A stretch of 64,000 nt of DNA, from NCBI GenBank assembly GCA_963559065.1, contig CAUWIY010000010.1, forward strand, positions 5,527 to 69,526, given 5' to 3'. Origin of the DNA: an uncultured Clostridia bacterium (GTDB taxonomy: Bacteria > Bacillota > Clostridia > TANB77 > CAG-508). Under the pieces are notes generated by a model that saw nothing but the letters and a program-made list of their open reading frames with translations, was not told the origin of the DNA and did not search any database. How positions within the stretch are numbered: the first letter of the stretch is position 1; each line of letters starts with the position of its first letter. The position numbers and the translations under genes are program-made. This document shows, piece after piece, positions 6,684-54,377 of the stretch.

Positions 6684-6759
6684 GCCAATATAGCTCAGTT
6701 GGTAGAGCAACGGATTCGTAACCCGTAGGCCAGCAGTTCGATTCTGCTTATTGGCTCCA
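6684..6759 (+). tRNA. tRNA-Thr (anticodon CGU), CCA encoded
   Basis: Cloverleaf folded by hand: acceptor GCCAATA/TATTGGC, D arm GCTC..GAGC, anticodon loop TTCGTAA, T arm AGCAG-TTCGATT-CTGCT, 3' TCCA. The anticodon stem has one A-C mismatch. Confidence 0.85.
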
Positions 6760-6768
6760 TTTTATAGC

Positions 6769-6805
6769 AACTTACGAACTATAAAGGGTTTCGTAAGTTT
6801 TTTTC
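6769..6805 (+). terminator. Rho-independent terminator after the tRNA
   Basis: aacttacgaa / ttcgtaagtt stem followed by TTTTT. Confidence 0.75.
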
Positions 6806-6878
6806 ATTTTTAGAAAAGATGAATTGAACTTAATAAAAATATCAAAAATGTTCTCTTTTAGAAAGAAGGACATTTTTT

Positions 6879-7001
6879 ATGTTTGAGTTTGAAATAGTAC
6901 AAGAATTAGTGCCAAATGCTGAAATATTAGAAATTATAAAAGACAATGCTTTTACAATTAAAAATAGCAAAAGCATTGACAATAAAGAACAAATGTTTTA
7001 G
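6879..7001 (+). CDS. Possible 40-aa small ORF (uncertain)
   Basis: AGAAGGA SD 8 nt before the ATG. Translation MFEFEIVQELVPNAEILEIIKDNAFTIKNSKSIDNKEQMF. Its 3' end overlaps the promoter of the next gene. No homology recognised. Confidence 0.2.
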   Translation: MFEFEIVQELVPNAEILEIIKDNAFTIKNSKSIDNKEQMF

Positions 7002-7004
7002 AAT
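6976..7004 (+). promoter_or_regulatory. Promoter of the ORF6N gene
   Basis: TTGACA (6976-6981), 17-nt spacer, TAGAAT (6999-7004). Confidence 0.5.
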
Positions 7005-7032
7005 ATAAAGGGTAAGAAAAGGATGTGAAACT

Positions 7033-7926
7033 ATGGAAGAAAATAAATTAGTAATTCAAAGTGAATTAACTATCGAAGAGATAAAAAACTTAATATATAC
7101 AATAAGAGGTAAACAGGTTATGCTAGATAGTGATGTGGCAAATATATACCATTGTGAGACAAAATATGTAAATCGTGTGGTAAAAAGAAATATAGAACGA
7201 TTTCCAGAAGAATTTTGTTTTCAATTGAATAAAAATGAGTTTGAATCTTTAAGGTGCCAATTTGTCACCTTAAACGAAAATGGAAGAGGACAACATAGAA
7301 AATATTTACCTTATGTATTTACTGAACAAGGTATAGCAATGTTATCAGCTTTGTTAAAAAGTCGTATTGCAGTAAGTGTCAGTGTAAATATTATGAAAGC
7401 ATTTATTGAAATGAGAAAATTTTTAATGATTAATGGACAAGTATTTGAAAGACTAACTAGTGTAGAACATAAATTACTAGAGCATGATAAAAAATTTGAC
7501 GAAGTATTTAATCAGCTTCAGTTAGAAGAAAATATCAAACAGAGAATATTTTTTGATGGTCAAATATATGAGGCATATAGCTTGATTATAGATATCATAA
7601 AAAGAGCAAATAATAAGATTTTGATTATAGATAATTATATTGATGATAGTATTTTGAAAATGTTAGCTAAAAAGAAAAACAATGTGGAAATAGTTATTCT
7701 AACATCAAACAAAAGCAATATTGAAAATTTAGATATTAAAAAATTTAATAAAGAATATCCTATTTTAAAAGTTGCTAAAACTAATAAATTCCATGATAGA
7801 TTTATAGTAATAGATAATAAAGAAATGTATCATTTAGGAGCTTCGATAAAAGATTTGGGCAAAAAATGCTTTGGAATTAATAAGATAGAAGATATGGAAA
7901 TTATAGAAAAAATTATTAACTTATGA
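7033..7926 (+). CDS. ORF6N (KilA-N-related) domain protein with a degenerate HKD/PLD-like C-terminal module
   Basis: N-terminus IRGKQVMLDSDVANIYHCETKYVNRVVKRNIERFPEEFCFQL is the ORF6N signature. A coiled-coil middle follows. C-terminus reads KFHDRFIVIDNKEMYHLGASIKDLGKK. Confidence 0.7.
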   Translation: MEENKLVIQSELTIEEIKNLIYTIRGKQVMLDSDVANIYHCETKYVNRVVKRNIERFPEEFCFQLNKNEFESLRCQFVTLNENGRGQHRKYLPYVFTEQGIAMLSALLKSRIAVSVSVNIMKAFIEMRKFLMINGQVFERLTSVEHKLLEHDKKFDEVFNQLQLEENIKQRIFFDGQIYEAYSLIIDIIKRANNKILIIDNYIDDSILKMLAKKKNNVEIVILTSNKSNIENLDIKKFNKEYPILKVAKTNKFHDRFIVIDNKEMYHLGASIKDLGKKCFGINKIEDMEIIEKIINL

Positions 7927-7934
7927 TACACATA

Positions 7935-7977
7935 AAAAATCCATACTATAAATTTAAAAATATAGTATGGATTTTTT
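7935..7977. terminator. Bidirectional rho-independent terminator
   Basis: aaaaatccatactata / tatagtatggattttt, a 16-bp stem flanked by an A-run and a T-run. Confidence 0.8.
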
Positions 7978-8142
7978 ATTATAACTTTTATTAAATAATG
8001 CTTTTCCAAAAATCTGGGGTACTAAAACTCAAGTCCTTTTCGCTCTCAGTTAGCCAAAATTTATCTTCTTCAGATGTTTTTCCTAAACTATTCAAATAAC
8101 TGATTTGCAATATTCCCATTGCATTACCAAGATTATAAAATA

Positions 8143-8673
8143 ATGGAAAATATAGAACATTCTTATTTCCCAAATGAAAATATAACACCAGCAGATGAAG
8201 TGTTAAACTGGTATAATAAAAACAATTTGACATGTATTGGTTTAAGAAATAGTAATAATGAAATTATAGCTAGTGTGAATATATTACCATTAAATAAAGA
8301 AGTATTTTATGATGTATATGAAGATAAAATAAATGAAGCTGATATAGTATTTAGTCAGATAGAAGAATATGAAAATAATAAATCATACTATATCTATTTA
8401 TCTTCTATATCAATAGATAAAAGATACAGAAACAATTATAGAGTAATAACTATTCTTTTAAAATGGTGTATGAATGTATTAGACTTATTATTTGAAAGAA
8501 ATATAAAAATAGAAAAAGTAATGGCTGATGCTTCTACAATACATGGAGAAAAAATATGTAAAAAATTATTAAAGATGGATTATATAAGAGATACAAAGCA
8601 TAAATCAAAAATATATTGTGCAGATGGACAAACAATTATAAATGTTATAGAAAAATTAAAAGTGTATAAATAA
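8143..8673 (+). CDS. GNAT-fold-like hypothetical protein (acetyl-CoA loop not canonical)
   Basis: Size and the pattern YIYLSSISIDKRYRNNYRVITILLKW...EKVMADASTIHGEKICKKL resemble the GNAT motif A region, but the R/Q-x-x-G-x-G/A loop is missing. No SD before either ATG 8143 or TTG 8119. Confidence 0.45.
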   Translation: MENIEHSYFPNENITPADEVLNWYNKNNLTCIGLRNSNNEIIASVNILPLNKEVFYDVYEDKINEADIVFSQIEEYENNKSYYIYLSSISIDKRYRNNYRVITILLKWCMNVLDLLFERNIKIEKVMADASTIHGEKICKKLLKMDYIRDTKHKSKIYCADGQTIINVIEKLKVYK

Positions 8674-8912
8674 ATTATAATGTGCTTTATAAAATTAAGT
8701 TAGGGTTAATAAATTTTAACATATAACCTAGATTGATTTTTTAAAGCATATTATTTTTTAATTAATATGAAAACTTTTAATAAGTATCGATTTTTAAATG
8801 GTATTTTTAGTCGAAGTATGGAAAAATAATATGTTATGTAGTATAATACTTAAGAAAAATTACTGTATAGTCAAGAAAATGAGAGAGAATTATTTATTAA
8901 GGAGTTGTAAAA

Positions 8913-10529
8913 ATGGAAACTACTAATCTATCAAAAATTAGAAGAGATAAAATGCTAAATACAATAAATGAAATAAAGAAAAATGTTGTTGATGAAGAAA
9001 CTTTAACTAATTTATCAATGATAGAAAATGAATTAACAAAAAAGAAGTATGGTCTTATTTGGGAAGAACATGAGGAACGAGTTGACAAAGAATTAGAAAC
9101 ACAAATACCTATTTTTGAAGAAGTGAAAGATAAAGAAATAATATCTAATCCTGAAGATAAGTTTAATTTTTTGTTAGAGGGAGATAATCTTCATAGTTTG
9201 TATTTATTAGAAAAAACTCATAAAGAGAAAATAGATATTATATATATAGATCCACCATATAATACAGGAAACAATGATTTTACTTATGGAGATGAAACGC
9301 TTTCAAAAGAAGACGAATATAAACATTCAAAATGGCTTTCGTTTATGGAAAAAAGATTAAAAATTGCTAAAAATCTTTTATGTCCTCATGGAGTTATATT
9401 TATTTCGATTGATGATAATGAATATGCAAATTTAAAATTATTATGTGACTCTGTTTTTGATGAAAACAACTTTATAGGAGTTTATTTAAAACAATCAAAA
9501 ATTGGTGGAGGAAATGATAGTAAGTTTATTGTAAAAGAACATGAATATTGCTTAGTATATTCTAAGAACTTTAATGATTGTTATCAAATGTTTATTAGGC
9601 ATGATGAAAAATATCTAAAGCGATATAAGGAAGAAGATGAAAATGGAAAATACTTTTGGGATACATTTGCTAGACCAGGATTAAAGCACCCAATTATATA
9701 TGATATAATTGCTCCAGATGGAAGTATTATAAATAATGGTTGGATACATTCTAAAACTAGATTTGAACAAGAATATTGTGAAGGAAAAATAAAAATTGTA
9801 AAAAACAAAAAAGGAGATTGGTCAGTTTTTTTTAAACAATATTTAAATTTAAAGGGAAAAAAACCACGAAGTATGACAATGAATTTTGGAGGTAGCATTG
9901 ATGGTAAAAAAGATTTAGTTAATGTTTTAAACGACGATAAGATTTTTTCTTACCCAAAATCAGTAGAATTTATAAAAACATTAATATCAACTGTTTCTGT
10001 AAAAAATCCTATTATTCTTGATTTTTTTGCTGGTTCTGGTACAACGGGACAAGCTGTGGCTGAAATGAATAAAGAAGATAATGGTAGTAGAACTTTTATA
10101 TTATGTACAAATAACGAAAATAATATTTGTGAAGATGTTACGTATAATAGATTAAAAAACACATTTAATGGTACTGAGAAACTAGAGGCTTCTAAATTTA
10201 ATCTGAAATACTACCGTTGTACTTATATTCCAAGAATTAATACCGAAACAGAAAACTTACATAATAATTTGCTTACAAACATAAAAAATCTTATTCAATT
10301 AGAAAATGGCATAGAGATAGATGATGATAAAATAAAAGTATATTTAAATGAAAACGAATTGGATAAATTTAGCACTAGTCAAGAAGAATTAGTTGTATGT
10401 GAAAAAGTATATATATCAAGTGATATTTTACTTACAACAGAACAAGAAAAAATCTTTGAAGATAATAATATTAGAGTATATATCATACCAGAGTATTACT
10501 TTGAAGATGAAATTATGGAGGTAATGTAA
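8913..10529 (+). CDS. mod: Type III R-M DNA methyltransferase (Mod, beta-class N6-adenine/N4-cytosine MTase)
   Basis: Motif IV IIYIDPPYNTG precedes motif I FFAGSGTTGQAV (beta order). AAGGAG SD. TAATG overlap with the downstream helicase-nuclease. Confidence 0.85.
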   Translation: METTNLSKIRRDKMLNTINEIKKNVVDEETLTNLSMIENELTKKKYGLIWEEHEERVDKELETQIPIFEEVKDKEIISNPEDKFNFLLEGDNLHSLYLLEKTHKEKIDIIYIDPPYNTGNNDFTYGDETLSKEDEYKHSKWLSFMEKRLKIAKNLLCPHGVIFISIDDNEYANLKLLCDSVFDENNFIGVYLKQSKIGGGNDSKFIVKEHEYCLVYSKNFNDCYQMFIRHDEKYLKRYKEEDENGKYFWDTFARPGLKHPIIYDIIAPDGSIINNGWIHSKTRFEQEYCEGKIKIVKNKKGDWSVFFKQYLNLKGKKPRSMTMNFGGSIDGKKDLVNVLNDDKIFSYPKSVEFIKTLISTVSVKNPIILDFFAGSGTTGQAVAEMNKEDNGSRTFILCTNNENNICEDVTYNRLKNTFNGTEKLEASKFNLKYYRCTYIPRINTETENLHNNLLTNIKNLIQLENGIEIDDDKIKVYLNENELDKFSTSQEELVVCEKVYISSDILLTTEQEKIFEDNNIRVYIIPEYYFEDEIMEVM

Positions 10530-12727
10530 TGCAAGGAATTAAACTAAAAAATTTTCAAATAGATACGGTAAATAAATTACTAGATGCAACATCAGTTGGT
10601 AACAAAAAAGAAGTTTTAGTACAAGCTCCTACTGGTAGTGGTAAAACTATTATATTACTTTCATATATTGAAGAATTTTTAAAAGAAAATAAAAATGCTA
10701 TATTTGTGTGGCTGACTCCGGGTAAAGGTGATTTGGAAGAACAAAGTAAAAATAAAATGATTAAATTTTTACCACATCATTCAACCAAAAATATTCAAGA
10801 AGTTTTATTACAAGGTTTTGAAGCGAAAGATACAGCATTTATAAATTGGGAAACAATTACTAAAAAAGGGAATAATGCTTTAAAAGAAACAGAAAGAAAA
10901 AATCTTTATGAAAGAGTTCGCGAAGCACATAATTGTGGATACAAGTTTATCATCATTGTTGATGAAGAGCATCTAAACAAAACAGTTAAGGCTGAAAGTA
11001 TTATTGAATATATGCAGCCAGAGTACATTGTTCGTGTTAGTGCTACAACTAAAACAAATAAAGAAGCAGAATTTATTAAAATAGATGAGCTAGAAGTAAT
11101 TAATGCAGGTCTTATAACAAGAGCATTATACATTAATGAAAATGTATCTAACCAAACAGCTTTGACAAATGAACACGAATATTTACTTAATTTAGCAATA
11201 AATAAAAGAAGAGCGATAAAAGAAGAATATATAAAACTAGGAGTTCAAGTGAATCCCTTAATTATTATTCAGGTACCAAGTAAGTCTGATGATTTAATTA
11301 AACAGATAGAAAAAATACTTGAAGAAAAAAATTATACTTATGATAGATGCAATTTAGCAATATGGCTATCTGAAAGAAAAGAAAATATTGAAAACATTGA
11401 AAATAATAATTCTTTACCATCTATTCTTATAATGAAACAAGCAATTTCTACAGGTTGGGATTGTCCTAGAGCAAAAATACTTGTAAAACTTCGTGATAAT
11501 ATGAGTGAAGATTTTGAAACTCAAACAATTGGAAGAATTAGAAGAATGCCACAAGCACATCATTATGATAATGTACTTTTAGACAATTGCTACCTTTATA
11601 CTTTTGATGAAAAGTATGAAACAGCCGTGAAACAAGAATTAGGAAATAATGCTTATGATACTAAAGTTATCTTCTTAAAAGATGAATTTAAAAATTTTGG
11701 TTTAAAGAAAATAACTTTTGATAATAGTTTTGATGGATTTGATGAAAGACAAACTTTTAACATATTACATGGATATTATATTGATAAATATAAGTTAACC
11801 AGTAATAAAAAGAATAATAAAACAATATTAGAAGCAAATGGATATGTATTTAAAGATACAATTGATAACTACATCATTCAAGATAAAATAGTTAGAATAA
11901 ACTCTGATGAATTAGAAAATGCCAATAGAATAAAAGTTAAATCAGAAGTAAGCACAAATAAAAATGGTTTTGAGTTGAGACATTCAATTAATGTTATATC
12001 ATCTAAAATCGGAATGAGATATGATAGAACAAGATTAATGCTAGAAAGAATGTTCTTTAGAGGTAAATTATTTACTAGAAAATTTGTAGATTTATCTTTA
12101 ATTGAATTTTATGCTTTTGCAATAAACAATGAAGAATTATTAAAACATGACTTTCAAGAAGCTGTTTCACAAAAAGCAAGACAAATAAAAATAAAACTAG
12201 ATGAATTAAAAATTGTTGATTGGAAAGTTCCCGAAATGGATTATATCAAGTATGACTCTAAGATGAAAGATACAATAATTTATGAAAAATCAATTTATAA
12301 GAATTATCCTAATAGTACAATAAAATCTAAAAGTGAAAGAATGTTTGAATACTTCTGCGAAAATAATGAAAACATTAAATGGTTCTACAAGAATGGTGAA
12401 TTATCAAGTGATTATTTCTCAATAGTATATGTCGACGCAGTAAATCATAAATGGCACTTTTATCCTGATTTTATTGTTTGTGATAAAAATAATAAAATAT
12501 GGATTATCGAAACTAAAGGTGGGGAAAACAACACGGGAGAGTCTAAAAATATTGACATTAAAGTAGAAAATAAATTTGAAGCATTAAAAGAATATTCTAA
12601 AAAATATAATGTCAATTTTGGATTTGTTAGAGATTATGATAAAAATAATTCACTTTATTTATGCAATACTGAATATACAGAAGATATGAAAAATGATAAT
12701 TGGAGATTATTAAAAGAATTTTTTTGA
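10529..12727 (+). CDS. res: Type III restriction enzyme Res subunit (SF2 helicase + PD-(D/E)xK nuclease)
   Basis: Walker A VQAPTGSGKT, DEEH box (IIVDEEH), SAT, motif VI QTIGRIRR. C-terminal YPDFIV...IIETKG is a PD..ExK nuclease motif. Translationally coupled to mod. Confidence 0.85.
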   Translation: MQGIKLKNFQIDTVNKLLDATSVGNKKEVLVQAPTGSGKTIILLSYIEEFLKENKNAIFVWLTPGKGDLEEQSKNKMIKFLPHHSTKNIQEVLLQGFEAKDTAFINWETITKKGNNALKETERKNLYERVREAHNCGYKFIIIVDEEHLNKTVKAESIIEYMQPEYIVRVSATTKTNKEAEFIKIDELEVINAGLITRALYINENVSNQTALTNEHEYLLNLAINKRRAIKEEYIKLGVQVNPLIIIQVPSKSDDLIKQIEKILEEKNYTYDRCNLAIWLSERKENIENIENNNSLPSILIMKQAISTGWDCPRAKILVKLRDNMSEDFETQTIGRIRRMPQAHHYDNVLLDNCYLYTFDEKYETAVKQELGNNAYDTKVIFLKDEFKNFGLKKITFDNSFDGFDERQTFNILHGYYIDKYKLTSNKKNNKTILEANGYVFKDTIDNYIIQDKIVRINSDELENANRIKVKSEVSTNKNGFELRHSINVISSKIGMRYDRTRLMLERMFFRGKLFTRKFVDLSLIEFYAFAINNEELLKHDFQEAVSQKARQIKIKLDELKIVDWKVPEMDYIKYDSKMKDTIIYEKSIYKNYPNSTIKSKSERMFEYFCENNENIKWFYKNGELSSDYFSIVYVDAVNHKWHFYPDFIVCDKNNKIWIIETKGGENNTGESKNIDIKVENKFEALKEYSKKYNVNFGFVRDYDKNNSLYLCNTEYTEDMKNDNWRLLKEFF

Positions 12728-21306: not shown

Positions 21307-21714
21307 ATGCGGAAATTGTTTTACGATGTTAGAATTGTTGTAAAAGACAATGATTACAACGATGAAACAAGAATATTTAAAAACAAAGGATTTTTAATTG
21401 TAAGCATTGACAATGGAAAAGTCGAAAAAATTGAAGGCCTTCTGACTAGAGATTATATTATTGCAACTCTTGAAGAAAATGAATTGGTTATGAAATATTA
21501 TGAATTAGATGTAGATTCAGGATATCTTCAGGAGATATTTAATATAATTTTGGAAGGGGATGAAGAAATCCCTTTAAACTTACGATTGGCATCAGATAGC
21601 ATGTTTATTGATTTTTATACAACTGCAACAATAAGGAATCCTGATGTGAAGAAATATTATGAGTTTTTGTTAGAAGAATTTAAGCAAAGTAGTATCTACG
21701 CAAGAGAACGGTGA
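21307..21714 (+). CDS. Hypothetical protein (135 aa)
   Basis: AAGGAGGAAA SD and its own terminator overlapping the stop codon. No family recognised. Confidence 0.6.
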   Translation: MRKLFYDVRIVVKDNDYNDETRIFKNKGFLIVSIDNGKVEKIEGLLTRDYIIATLEENELVMKYYELDVDSGYLQEIFNIILEGDEEIPLNLRLASDSMFIDFYTTATIRNPDVKKYYEFLLEEFKQSSIYARER

Positions 21715-21728
21715 TTGCCGTTCTCTTT
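21704..21728 (+). terminator. Terminator hairpin overlapping the stop codon
   Basis: gagaacgg-tgattg-ccgttctc followed by TTT. Confidence 0.55.
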
Positions 21729-22113
21729 CATTACCTGTTATGATATGATGTTATAATACATAATGTATGCTTGAATAGAGTGAGTTTTAAAATTTGTTAT
21801 TGCTTATCTTGAGTAATGTTCACGGGTACAATTAATATAGTTATATTTTGATAATTTTCTCGGTTCAATACGCAACATAAAAAATTCTAAAATTGTTTTA
21901 TGGCACTCTTCCACTAAAAGTGAACTCTTTCCATAAAACAATTTAAAAATTTCTAATATTGCTCCAATCACATTCGAAAAGTTATAAAAATATAACTATA
22001 TTCATTGTAGGCCTGAGTGAAAAAGCCTCAAGATAAGCAATTACAAATTTTTAACGAATGAAATGAACAAATACATTATGTATTATAACATCATATCATA
22101 ACAGGTAATGAAA
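21726..22113. repeat. 388-bp foldback element with perfect 43-bp terminal inverted repeats
   Basis: 21726-21768 is the exact reverse complement of 22071-22113. The interior halves are imperfectly complementary around a 27-nt centre (21904-21930). No internal ORF exceeds 11 codons. Confidence 0.9.
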
Positions 22114-22140: not shown

Positions 22141-22169
22141 TTGATATATTTTATTTAATTTAGTAGAAT
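22141..22169 (+). promoter_or_regulatory. Promoter of dgkA
   Basis: TTGATA, 17-nt spacer, TAGAAT. Confidence 0.5.
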
Positions 22170-22225: not shown

Positions 22226-22591
22226 ATGAGCAATAACAAAACAAAAAAATTTATAGATAGTTTCAAATATGCTATAGAAGGAATATTAACAGGAATAAAA
22301 GAAGAAAGAAATCTAAAAATACACATAACAATAATGATTCTTGTTATAATATTTGGATTTATATTTAAAATTAGTAGAATTGAATGGATAATATGTATTT
22401 TGCTATTTGGTTTAGTTATCTCAGCAGAATTAATAAACACATCAATAGAAAATGTTGTGGATTTGATTACAATGGAAAAACATCCAAAAGCTAAAATTGC
22501 AAAAGATGTATCAGCAGGTGCTGTATTGATAATTGCAATAACATCAGCAATTATTGGACTTATTATTTTTGGTTCTAAAATAATTTTTTAA
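22226..22591 (+). CDS. dgkA: Diacylglycerol/undecaprenol kinase DgkA
   Basis: 121 aa, 3 TM. FKYAIEGI..ERNLKIH and SAELINTSIENVVD motifs. Confidence 0.85.
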   Translation: MSNNKTKKFIDSFKYAIEGILTGIKEERNLKIHITIMILVIIFGFIFKISRIEWIICILLFGLVISAELINTSIENVVDLITMEKHPKAKIAKDVSAGAVLIIAITSAIIGLIIFGSKIIF

Positions 22592-51112: not shown

Positions 51113-51183
51113 AAAGTCGAAAAATAGGTAAAAAATAGTAAACGAAAAAATAATAGACAAAAGAATAATAAATGGAGGAAACA

Positions 51184-52716
51184 ATGGAAAAGAAAAAGAA
51201 AATTATATCAACAATTATTATTTTAACAATTATAATATATTATTCACTTTCAATATTAATTCAAAATAATGTTTTTGCAGTAACACAGGTTGTAAGTACA
51301 GACATAGAAAACATTGATGAGTCTAAATACCCAGGAATAAAATCAAGAATAAAAGAATTACAAAGGCAATATCCAAATTGGAATTTTAAATTATTATACA
51401 CAAAATTGGATTGGAATGAAGTAATTAGAAATGAATATACAGGACATGGAACATCTCCTAAAAACTTAGTATATAAATCAGAAAAATATAAGGGAGAATG
51501 GATTTGTCCTATATGTGGAGATAGAGCATATGATAACGGAAATTGGAGATGTGCTTCTGAACAAGCAATTAAATATATGATGGATCCTAGAGCATCTTTA
51601 AATGCTTCTGATGTTTTTCAGTTTGAAGAGCTAACAAATGTTGGTTGTGATATAAATACATTGAAAAATATGACCAGGGGAACTTTTTTAGAAGGACATG
51701 AACAAGGAATTATAAATGCTGCGAATAATAATAATGTTAACGCATATTATATAGTAGCTAGATTAATTCAAGAACAAGGAACAAGCGGATCAGTGTTGAC
51801 ATCTGGAGCGGGTTATAATGGACAATATGTTGGATATTATAATGCTTTTAATATAGCTGCTTCTGGAAATTCATCATCAGCAATTATACTAAATGCTTTA
51901 AATTATGCACAAAAAAAAGGATGGACAAGTTTAGATGCTTCAATAGATGGTGGAATAAGTTTCTTAGCAAAACAATATATTCAAAAAGGACAGAATACTT
52001 TATATCTTCAAAAATTTGATGTAGAAGAAACAAATGGATATTATTCACATCAATATATGCAAAATATATTAGCAGCCCAAAATGAAGGAATGACATTAAA
52101 AAATACTTATAGTAGTATAAATTCTATTGCATCACCACATACATTTGTTATACCAGTATATGAAAATATGCCTGTAGAAGTTAGCAAAAGACCAGATTCA
52201 AATGGAAGTAATGTTAAGCCAAATCCAAATGAAGATTTAGTAAGAGTAAATGTAGGAAGTTCATTAAGAATAAGAAATAGTCCAAACGGAGATAAAACAA
52301 TCGGATGGTTATATAAAGATGAAGTTGTAACAAGATTAGAAAAAGCAACATCAAAAGTTGGTGGTACATATTGGGATAAAATAAGAAAATCAGATGGAAC
52401 AGTAGGCTATGCTGCAAGAGAGACATACGAAAATGAAGCTGAATATAAATTATATTTAGTACCAATAAATGAATCTGATAACAATAATAATGGAAATAAC
52501 AATAATGATAATGGAAATAATAATGATGATTATATGGCGGGAGATGTTAATGGAGATAAAAAAATAACATCAAGTGATTATGTACTAATTAAAGATTATA
52601 TTATGGAAAGTTCACCTTTATCAGATACAGCTAAAAAAGCGGCTGATTATAATAAAGATGGAAAAATAACATCAAGTGATTACGTATTAATTAAGGACTA
52701 TATTATGGAGGAATAA
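51184..52716 (+). CDS. Secreted peptidoglycan hydrolase (GH73-like glucosaminidase domain) + SH3b + C-terminal dockerin
   Basis: Signal/TM helix. ARLIQEQGTSGS...NAFNI glucosaminidase-like core. SH3b-like VRVNVGSSLRIRNSPNGDKTIGWLYKDE. Two dockerin segments, GDVNGDKKITSSDYVLIKDYIM and DYNKDGKITSSDYVLIKDYIM. Start moved to ATG 51184 (GGAGG SD). Confidence 0.7.
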   Translation: MEKKKKIISTIIILTIIIYYSLSILIQNNVFAVTQVVSTDIENIDESKYPGIKSRIKELQRQYPNWNFKLLYTKLDWNEVIRNEYTGHGTSPKNLVYKSEKYKGEWICPICGDRAYDNGNWRCASEQAIKYMMDPRASLNASDVFQFEELTNVGCDINTLKNMTRGTFLEGHEQGIINAANNNNVNAYYIVARLIQEQGTSGSVLTSGAGYNGQYVGYYNAFNIAASGNSSSAIILNALNYAQKKGWTSLDASIDGGISFLAKQYIQKGQNTLYLQKFDVEETNGYYSHQYMQNILAAQNEGMTLKNTYSSINSIASPHTFVIPVYENMPVEVSKRPDSNGSNVKPNPNEDLVRVNVGSSLRIRNSPNGDKTIGWLYKDEVVTRLEKATSKVGGTYWDKIRKSDGTVGYAARETYENEAEYKLYLVPINESDNNNNGNNNNDNGNNNDDYMAGDVNGDKKITSSDYVLIKDYIMESSPLSDTAKKAADYNKDGKITSSDYVLIKDYIMEE

Positions 52717-52721
52717 AATAT

Positions 52722-54377
52722 ATGAAAAACATAAGAATAAAAGCAATTTTATTTGGAATTGCTATGATAGCACTTATAATGTTTATACCTAATTTATCTA
52801 AAGCAGCTTCTCTTTCAATAAGAGCGTCTAAATCGACTGCTAATGCAGGAGAAACAATTAGTGTAACAATATCTTCAGATAGTGTCGGAAGAGTAAATTT
52901 ATCAGTATCAAATGGAACATTATCTACAAATAAAGTTTGGTTAGAAAATAATTCTCAAACAGTAAATGTAACTGTAGGAGGACAAGGTACAACGACAATT
53001 ACAGCAACACCAGAAAATGGTCAAATGTCTAATAATAAGGTGGATGTACCAGTAGCTGCCCAATCAGTAAATATTGCAATAAATAGTGGAAACAACAATA
53101 ATGGAAATAATGGTGGTGGAACAACATCAAAATCAAATAATGCAAATTTAGGAAATTTAGGAATTACACCAAATGACTTTACAGGATTTAGAGCAAATAA
53201 AACTAGTTATAGTGTGACAGTACCAAACAATGTGAGTACAATTAATGTTTATGCAAAAAAAGGACATAGTGGTCAAACAATATCAGGGACAGGAAATAAA
53301 ACACTAAATGTAGGAAATAATACATTTAATGTAGTAGTAACAGCAGAAGATGGAGTTACAAAAAAAACATACACAATTAATGTTACAAGAGAAGGTGGAG
53401 ACAATACACAAACTGTTACAAATCAATCTAATAATGCAGATTTAAAAAACTTAGGAATAAGACCAAATGACTTTTCTGGTTTTAAAGCAAATAAAACAGA
53501 ATATTCAGTTGAAGTTCCAAATGAAGTTGAAAATATAGAAGTATATGCAGTAAAAGGAAATGACAAACAAACAATTACAGGAACAGGTAATAAAACATTA
53601 ACAGAAGGAGAAAATACATTTAATGTCGTTGTAACAGCAGAAGATGGAACAACTAAAAAGATATATACAATTAATGTTAGAAGAAAAGCTAAAGACGAGA
53701 CTACAGAAGAAAAACCAACAGAAGAAAATCCCGAAGAAGATCCATTAGAAGAAATTTTTGGATTATCAGAATTAACAGTAGAAGGACTTAACTTAAACCC
53801 AGAATTTAAAACAGATATTTATGAATATACATTAGACTTAGAGGAAGACAAAGAAAAATTAGATATAATAACAGTTTCAACAGAAGTAAATGCAACTATA
53901 GAAGTAACAGGAAATGAACAATTACAAAACGGTGAAAATGTTATAACTATCTTGGTTTCGAATGAAGCAGGGGATAAGACCGCAACATATCAAATTACTG
54001 TAAATAAAAAAATTAAAGATGAAAATCTAATGGCTGAAGAACAAGAAAAAATTAAGCAAGAAAAACAAAAAAAGATAATTATGTTAGCTTGTTCGGCTGT
54101 AGCTGTTGTAATAATAGGTATTGTTGCAATTGTTATAATTATTAAGAAATCAAGAAACGCATCATCTGAAATACCATATTCAAATTTATATGATGAAGAA
54201 GATAATTTTGATGATGGTAATTATGAAGATTATACATATGGATTAAAACCAAAGCAAGAAATACAAGAAGATAAATTAGATAGCGAAAATTTAGCTGAAG
54301 AAAACACAGAATATGATGACTATGAGCAAGAAGAAACTAGAAAAAATAAACATAAAAAAGGAAAAAGATTTAAATAA
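52722..54377 (+). CDS. Cell-surface protein: Ig-like N-domain, three cadherin-like beta-sandwich repeats, C-terminal TM anchor
   Basis: Signal peptide. Repeats NANLGNLGITPNDFTGF...TYSVTVPN...VVVTAEDGVTKKTYTINVTR occur twice, plus a third diverged copy. A TM helix (IIMLACSAVAVVIIGIVAIVIII) and a charged tail follow. Confidence 0.7.
   Translation: MKNIRIKAILFGIAMIALIMFIPNLSKAASLSIRASKSTANAGETISVTISSDSVGRVNLSVSNGTLSTNKVWLENNSQTVNVTVGGQGTTTITATPENGQMSNNKVDVPVAAQSVNIAINSGNNNNGNNGGGTTSKSNNANLGNLGITPNDFTGFRANKTSYSVTVPNNVSTINVYAKKGHSGQTISGTGNKTLNVGNNTFNVVVTAEDGVTKKTYTINVTREGGDNTQTVTNQSNNADLKNLGIRPNDFSGFKANKTEYSVEVPNEVENIEVYAVKGNDKQTITGTGNKTLTEGENTFNVVVTAEDGTTKKIYTINVRRKAKDETTEEKPTEENPEEDPLEEIFGLSELTVEGLNLNPEFKTDIYEYTLDLEEDKEKLDIITVSTEVNATIEVTGNEQLQNGENVITILVSNEAGDKTATYQITVNKKIKDENLMAEEQEKIKQEKQKKIIMLACSAVAVVIIGIVAIVIIIKKSRNASSEIPYSNLYDEEDNFDDGNYEDYTYGLKPKQEIQEDKLDSENLAEENTEYDDYEQEETRKNKHKKGKRFK

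Follow-up and report, generated by a model that had tools for sequence, protein, structure and literature searches.

We analysed a 64,000-nt stretch of DNA from an uncultured Clostridia bacterium (the window, to which all coordinates refer), in which a non-coding foldback element lies upstream of dgkA. The element is probably one copy of a previously undescribed, non-autonomous family resembling MITEs (miniature inverted-repeat transposable elements). The family, with about 20-25 copies per genome, would belong to a lineage of gut Clostridia that is uncultured, forms spores, has 26% GC and is related to 'Clostridium sp. CAG:575'. Terminal inverted repeats (TIRs), copy number, empty sites in related species, target-site duplications and the lack of coding capacity make up the signature of a MITE as defined in PMC3184786. 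A foldback MITE was one of the options offered by an earlier reading of the same letters (the original prediction), and it is supported by the multi-copy status, by two empty sites, by duplications at four of six complete copies and by the absence of coding capacity.

The element in the window, 388 bp across the two arms, is bounded by two 43-nt inverted repeats that are perfectly complementary (Table 1). Inside them lie three further inverted repeats, I3 (21786-21823 / 22017-22054, 84% complementary), I2 (21820-21858 / 21978-22016, 85%) and I4 (21872-21903 / 21931-21962, 84%), which enclose a 27-nt centre. Each strand was predicted to fold into one continuous long hairpin, with -148.5 and -157.6 kcal/mol (z = -16.5 and -20.3), and none of 100 shuffled sequences was equally stable. 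Both arms carry the promoter-like extended -10 motif TGTTATAAT, facing inward. Internal open reading frames (ORFs) were at most 55 aa long, none matched a Pfam family and none was conserved; relatives of the element had 1-nt indels in the stretch that holds them. A search with the 43-mer, allowing up to three mismatches, gave no further match in the window and none in 100 shuffles. The perfect terminal repeats, the self-complementary interior blocks around a 27-nt centre, the inward extended -10 motifs, the lack of coding capacity and the location between a terminator and the dgkA promoter had all been described in the original prediction and were confirmed here; the RNA folding that it had proposed gave the single long hairpin.

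Table 1. Coordinates of the element and of its flanking features in the window
Feature	Position	Strand	Basis or remark
135-aa ORF upstream of the element, no Pfam family	21307-21714	+	Pfam search
Terminator-like hairpin of the 135-aa ORF, GAGAACGG-TGATTG-CCGTTCTC	21704-21725	+	flanking DNA, outside the element
Left arm, perfect 43-nt inverted repeat	21726-21768	+	self-comparison; 100% complementary to 22071-22113
Promoter-like extended -10 motif TGTTATAAT, inward-facing	21749-21757	+	sequence reading, left arm
Asymmetric core: three imperfect stems, large non-complementary internal loops, 27-nt apex	21769-22070	+	fold and copy alignment
Apical domain	21856-21976	+	80% match to the 'short form' hairpin element
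Right arm, perfect 43-nt inverted repeat	22071-22113	-	100% complementary to 21726-21768
Mirrored TGTTATAAT, inward-facing	22082-22090	-	sequence reading, right arm
Right terminal motif AAAAAAATGAAATTTAAA	22111-22128	+	alignment of copies and motif search
Sigma-70-like promoter of dgkA, TTGATA-17-TAGAAT	22141-22169	+	motif reading; flanking DNA
dgkA (PF01219)	22226-22591		Pfam match

Copy number, which the original prediction had proposed as a check, showed that the element is not a single locus. In Logan contigs of four gut or faecal metagenomes, the depth at 21768-21831 was 217, 411, 225 and 394, against 8.9, 16.1, 9.4 and 18.2 for the flanks; the element was thus about 22-25 times as deep as its flanks, and many loose contig ends ran into different flanks. 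The window itself contains only one copy, as would be expected if about 20 were spread over a genome of a few megabases. A 23-mer taken from the right half occurred at six loci in one species-representative genome, a metagenome-assembled genome (MAG) of an 'uncultured Clostridia bacterium'. Four of these loci hold complete copies, one has a copy that is complete except for a flank at the edge of the sequence examined, and one has a right end only, at the start of the sequence examined. The window species has a second complete copy, located between veg and rnc (L057, L059). Every copy was intergenic. Contigs with identical neighbouring proteins either broke about 30 nt into the arm (Logan assemblies, k=31) or crossed the element.

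Searches elsewhere were negative. The exact 43-mer had no match in the species-representative genomes because the arm is copy-specific, and a 23-mer of the right arm had no match in the JGI metagenomes. None of the Rfam 15 covariance models reached its gathering score; at an E-value of up to 10, only generic microRNA-hairpin noise appeared, with scores well short of the threshold. BLAST searches of plasmids and phages and scans of viral contigs with the centre, arm and terminal motifs returned nothing, or chance matches in the coding DNA of giant viruses.

Alignment of the complete copies, which are 390-450 bp long, indicated that the palindrome is longer than the 43 nt seen in the window. From the outside inward, a complete copy consists of a conserved 18-nt terminal motif (consensus TTTAAGTTTCGGTTTTTT), a segment of 10-25 nt that differs in each copy, a conserved arm segment of about 30 nt containing TGTTATAAT, and an asymmetric core of about 300 nt with three imperfect stems, large non-complementary loops and an apex. 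The inverted repeats of the other copies span 47-74 nt, are near-perfect and include the terminal motif. The TATAAT core of TGTTATAAT was invariant in six aligned copies, and the copy at the rnc locus had lost the TG of the extended -10 in both arms. In the window, the reverse complement of the right terminal motif, TTTAAATTTCATTTTTTT, is identical to the consensus at 15 of 18 positions, so the right side continues beyond 22113, where the original prediction had ended the element, and the true right end is probably at about 22128. The left terminal motif (TTTAAGTTTCGGTTTTTT and part of the variable segment) is missing, and the terminator of the upstream gene abuts the arm instead; the window copy is therefore truncated on the left. 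By comparison with full copies, the first 6 nt of its left arm (TTTCAT) may derive from the flank. As judged from this alignment, the 43-nt repeats are not conserved transposase sites: they are copy-specific, and the conserved terminal motif lies outside them.

Several contigs and arrangements required separate interpretation. The element does not consist of two adjacent inverted copies of a 190-bp unit, since other loci hold the whole palindrome with identical left/right asymmetry. A MAG copy near trxB/trx is not the orthologue of the window copy; the junctions differ, and the two are separate insertions. Two odd contigs, L003 (the same as L058) and L007, joined the left flank and left half-element of the window to the right arm of other copies and to their downstream genes, namely rnc and a gene encoding 278 aa. 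At the native rnc locus, the copy has its own left arm with veg upstream in at least 14 contigs; L003 and L007 are best explained as assembly chimeras, or as rare recombinants, that arose through the repeat. Beside a gene terminator lay a 52-nt piece of left-arm core (L010:3163-3214), and a solitary terminal motif, AAAAAACCGAAACTTAAATTT, was followed by a different interior (L012:36-56); they look like decayed copies and possibly a second element type with shared termini. One run (X22) contained a variant without the 94-nt apex (window 21882-21977), and in two others (X4, X27) the left-arm core was joined straight to right-arm sequence at 21823. From their sequences, we read these variants as internally deleted family members.

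Two orthologous intergenic sites were empty in related species, as the original prediction had suggested examining. The dgkA junction is empty in one of them (L051-53), in which 103 nt separate a 128-aa ORF from dgkA, compared with about 510 nt in the window. The dgkA gene of this species is 78% identical, the 128-aa ORF is the syntenic counterpart of the 135-aa ORF, and the order of the ORF without Pfam match, dgkA, trxB, trx, DUF4153 and DUF2975 is common to both. At the empty site, nothing intervenes between the terminator, TTTCAT, TTTAAAT and the promoter of dgkA; the equivalent hairpin is followed by TTTTTCAT directly before the promoter, which has the homologous sequence TTGATA-N17-TAAAAT. 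The veg-rnc junction is empty in human-gut contigs (L065-68) and measures 102 nt there versus 577 nt with the element, the terminator and the promoter being kept on either side. The RNase III of this relative is 92% identical to the enzyme of the window species, and its contigs carry a protein that one source attributes to Clostridium sp. CAG:575.

Direct repeats of 10, 9, 8 and 7 nt (AAAAATGATT, AATAAAAAA, AATTTTAA and TTTTTTA) abut the termini in four of the six complete copies. In a null drawn from the window, direct repeats of at least 7 nt had P = 0.009 and those of at least 9 nt had P = 0.0013. The original prediction had seen no target-site duplication at the window copy, which is itself truncated on the left; for the family this has to be corrected. 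Duplications of 8-10 bp suggest that a DDE-type transposase acts in trans. In the proposed mechanism, the element would insert into intergenic DNA rich in A/T, as a rule downstream of a terminator and ahead of the promoter that follows, and such a transposase would duplicate about 8-10 bp of the target. The window insertion site was also occupied in a strain whose flanks are 91-94% identical, which indicates that the insertion is old and fixed; the window copy is probably immobile.

The original prediction had also offered a recombinase-driven invertible switch. In such a switch, the 43-nt repeats would serve a recombinase or RecA as sites for flipping the core, and dgkA or an internal RNA would be expressed differently. 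The repeats match perfectly and are longer than homologous recombination requires at minimum, and the asymmetric core would make the two states different. One Logan contig (L025) indeed joined the left flank to an inverted core; however, it came from a k=31 assembly, which is unable to resolve a 43-nt repeat, and the orientation of the window was found in all six long-k-mer assemblies, obtained from six samples. As the original prediction had stated, no recombinase is near: none was found in the 64 kb, where the 48 ORFs with 110 aa or more lack recombinase and integrase domains. Moreover, the element is a dispersed repeat, and the core of each copy is fixed and orientation-specific. In known switches such as fimS and flgB and cwpV of Clostridioides difficile, inverted repeats flank a non-coding segment upstream of a gene, as they do in the window. 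Those switches are single loci with repeats of 9-31 bp, a non-palindromic interior and a dedicated recombinase, and both orientations occur in the population, whereas the present element has a palindromic interior, no recombinase that we could find and one orientation in the long-k-mer assemblies. We consider a switch extremely improbable; the appealing idea of a phase-variable device upstream of dgkA gives way to a dispersed repeat, of which the window contains a truncated and fixed copy.

In each copy, the two arms change in concert. Across the five MAG paralogues, identity was 97.8% in the core, 77-80% in the outer arms and 58-59% in the variable segment; within each copy, the two arms were almost perfectly complementary over 47-74 nt. 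In the outer helix of the six-copy alignment, both sides had changed in 23 of 72 pairs and one side only in two. Paired cells made up 97% overall and 41-45% when the partners were slid by 1-3 columns, and none of 500 shuffles reached any of the observed measures. Indels were mirrored as well: the L009 copy lacks ATATG in both arms, and the L010 and L012 copies have 5 additional nt in both. Four arm substitutions separate the rnc copy from the dgkA copy, including the loss of the extended -10 TG, and each of the four occurs on both sides. The diverged strain's orthologous copy has an A-to-C change and a block of indel and substitution that are mirrored, and one C-to-T change that is not. By our own classification of pair types, the double changes were mostly of the transversion type (AU to UA, CG to AU), which has no wobble intermediate, and G:U cells were rare.

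This pattern appears to fit DNA-level copying between the arms better than slow compensatory RNA selection. The arms would be homogenised by template switching or by gene conversion across the outer inverted repeat, which is uninterrupted and has its arms 300 nt apart, and the large heterologous loops of the core would halt such conversion. Selection for a hairpin intermediate of transposition, as proposed for REPINs (PMC3116915), possibly reinforces the matching. The perfect ends would then be the outcome of concerted evolution of the arms within each copy and not conserved binding sites. The original prediction had concluded from perfect ends and a drifting interior that the ends are maintained. 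The conclusion holds in substance, since the arms co-vary within copies; its premise of a drifting interior was wrong. A core inserted into an older family of small palindromes was rejected as the main explanation, because the mirrored variation shows no sharp boundary and grades inward until only 9 nt separate it from the core; the DNA examined contained no small palindromes without a core.

Arm complementarity could also be kept by selection for the fold itself, if the element were a REPIN-like replicator that a domesticated HUH/Y1 transposase (RAYT or IS200/IS605-type) recognises as a folded hairpin and moves as single-stranded DNA. REPINs are described in PMC3116915 as hairpins whose ends are conserved and whose paired segment varies, with compensatory changes on both sides. 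Conserved ends, a compensated variable spacer and a whole-element hairpin are found here too; the family is intergenic, like REPINs, and it persists as a population in its lineage and across species with a conserved 'master' core. However, direct repeats of 7-10 bp flank four of the six copies, whereas IS200/IS605-type transposition makes no target duplication. The element, at about 400 nt, is four to five times the size of REPINs, which measure about 70-110 nt, are associated with a single-copy Y1 transposase and make no target-site duplication. Neither a conserved target tetranucleotide beside the ends nor a gene for a Y1 transposase or RAYT in the 64-kb window was seen. We therefore regard a REPIN-like replicator as very unlikely.

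Unlike the arms, the core is strongly conserved. The five MAG paralogues shared 97.8% identity in it, and the window copy was 93.2% identical to those of the MAG, although the trxB/trx DNA of the two species is only 67% identical. The copies matched the window element at 92-94.5% in one orientation and at about 73% in the other, indicating that the left/right differences are a conserved family feature and not drift. The interior that the original prediction had called drifted is thus the opposite: its asymmetry is shared among paralogues and between species (93%). In the core stems, isolated mismatches come and go between species, some of them as compensated pairs. A 25-mer from the apex further identified 22 human-gut contigs with a 'short form' of 165-175 nt, present at three or more loci. 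The short form is a hairpin (z = -6 to -8), is 80% identical to window 21856-21976 and lacks the arms of the long form, so that it corresponds to the apical domain only. Its loop sequences CTCGGnTnAnTACG and CACATTCG and its apex GGCACCCTTCCACTAAAAGTGAACTCTTTCC are conserved with respect to the window, and its stems are different. The short form (L028-L049, e.g. L035:1925-2100) mostly lies between an unannotated gene for 657 aa and an operon encoding an OmpR-type response regulator and a histidine kinase, where the hairpin stops just upstream of the -35 of the operon; at least two further loci were seen (L033, L044). From these comparisons, the orientation-specific core appears to be the oldest and most constrained part of the family. 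A transposase requirement, horizontal spread or a host or RNA function may each account for this constraint. In the MITE-like mechanism proposed here, the core would stay constant by selection on whatever propagation requires.

The conservation of the core bears on another explanation, which is compatible with a transposable element and takes up the third option of the original prediction, a convergently transcribed long-hairpin RNA locus. The family may be a mobile non-coding RNA cassette in which each arm is a complete promoter facing inward: a T-tract would act as UP element, the -35 region would be free in sequence, and the -10 would be of the extended type. Convergent transcription of the core would yield two different long-hairpin RNAs or a double-stranded RNA (dsRNA) of about 310 bp as the functional molecule, and the core would be conserved by host-level or RNA-level selection. 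Both arms of the window copy have a perfect, inward-facing TGTTATAAT, and an inward TGNTATAAT is kept in most arms; on the other hand, the TG is missing from either arm of the rnc copy, and the short form has no promoter-bearing arms. The variable segment coincides with the -35 region, where an extended -10 promoter needs no conservation. Between species, conservation is much stronger in the core than in the flanking genes, and the distant short form keeps loops and apex while its stems differ. Element sequence was also assembled from RNA-seq and metatranscriptome runs, and one contig ended in adapter at the right terminal A-run. The depth of these contigs was 6-8 (unstranded and summed over about 20 copies), compared with 2-8 for single-copy genes of the organism; this signal is no higher than expected from about 20 copies in DNA or from ordinary read-through, and DNA carry-over is possible. 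Isolated mismatches in the core stems were mostly transversions without G:U strand bias, a measure that proved uninformative for choosing a functional RNA strand. No Rfam family matched, and no terminator follows the hairpin on either strand. We judge an RNA cassette to be unlikely. Its stronger form, a mobile, self-promoted hairpin-RNA gene whose core RNA or dsRNA has a cellular or anti-phage role, and in which arm-to-arm copying would keep the two promoters matched, is distinctly unlikely; if true, it would be a new class of bacterial non-coding RNA locus with transposon-like spread.

For the MITE-like family, several observations weigh on the other side. Two of the six copies have no target-site duplication, and the duplications are uneven in length (7-10 nt). 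No transposase was found among the 48 ORFs in the window that reach 110 aa or beside the five MAG copies, and an autonomous insertion sequence (IS) with matching termini was absent from the window, from the neighbourhood of the MAG copies and from the viral, plasmid and phage collections. We saw no insertion polymorphism within a population, and current mobility is hence without evidence. Both empty sites are in other species, where deletion of the element is formally possible. The copy number derived from depth sums all organisms of each metagenome, and the complete copies analysed number seven in total. Except for the -10-like segment, the arms vary more than the core, whereas TIRs are the best-conserved part of typical MITEs, and the high identity of the core between species could reflect a host-level function instead of element-level selection or horizontal spread. 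One MAG copy lies 228 nt downstream of a gene for a large serine recombinase of 559 aa (L009:728-2407) with Resolvase, Recombinase and Zn-ribbon domains, followed by a 529-aa ORF; this region is probably the edge of an integrated element, and its link with the repeat may be coincidental.

Among known repeats, bacterial MITEs (Correia, ERIC, RUP, Nezha and MaeMITE), which were reviewed in PMC3184786, come close to the present family. Their reported upper size is about 400 bp, and promoter-like motifs may occur in them (PMC3184786). Like MITEs, the element is non-coding, multi-copy and intergenic, has TIRs around a core and target duplications, and forms a long, very stable stem-loop; it also falls within their size range (tens to about 400-600 bp) and carries no transposase gene. 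Unlike MITEs, the whole 390-450 bp form one hairpin with a large orientation-specific core that is better conserved than the arms, each copy has its own sequence, mirrored in the two arms, from the 18-nt terminal motif to the core, and no parent IS is known. In eukaryotic foldback transposons (FB of Drosophila and Galileo), the long arms are more similar within a copy than between copies. By analogy only, the concerted evolution of the two arms here may be likened to them; FB and Galileo are eukaryotic, have kilobase-scale arms, often with tandem repeats, and have known or suspected autonomous partners, unlike the present element.

The family is large for a bacterial MITE, comes from a little-known lineage of uncultured gut Clostridia and has a shorter relative in a human-gut species. 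It breaks short-k-mer assemblies at every copy and yields chimeric contigs, which bears on the quality of MAGs in this clade. A core that is more conserved between species than protein-coding genes, together with arms that diverge yet stay mirrored, indels included, is a puzzle. The copies constitute a natural data set on the homogenisation of closely spaced bacterial inverted repeats and on the needs of non-autonomous elements.

In the flanking DNA, the stop codon of the 135-aa ORF (21712-21714) lies inside the loop of the terminator-like hairpin. This protein had only four near-identical relatives among 5.8 billion database proteins and is, from these searches, a lineage-specific gene to which Pfam assigned no function. 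The GC content of the window was 25.9%, and of its 48 ORFs with 110 aa or more, 44 lie on the + strand, a strong co-orientation typical of the leading-strand bias of Firmicutes. SpoIIE (in the MAG) and the dockerin and cadherin-like proteins of the window (51172-54377) suggest a lineage of Clostridia that forms spores and is associated with cellulosomes. In the window species, SpoIIID is intact, with 98 aa (L057:725-1021). In the human-gut relative, SpoIIID was called only as a 34-aa fragment (L065:1-323, L066:138-242), and one contig had a 548-aa large serine recombinase immediately upstream of the fragment; SpoIIID may be interrupted there by a skin-like intervening element. Elsewhere in the window, a tRNA gene (6684-6756) is followed by a gene for an ORF6N-domain protein (7033-7926). 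An N6/N4 DNA methylase (8913-10529) and a ResIII helicase/endonuclease (10529-12727) form a type III-like restriction-modification pair, and this tRNA-adjacent region (6684-12727) may be a small defence islet.

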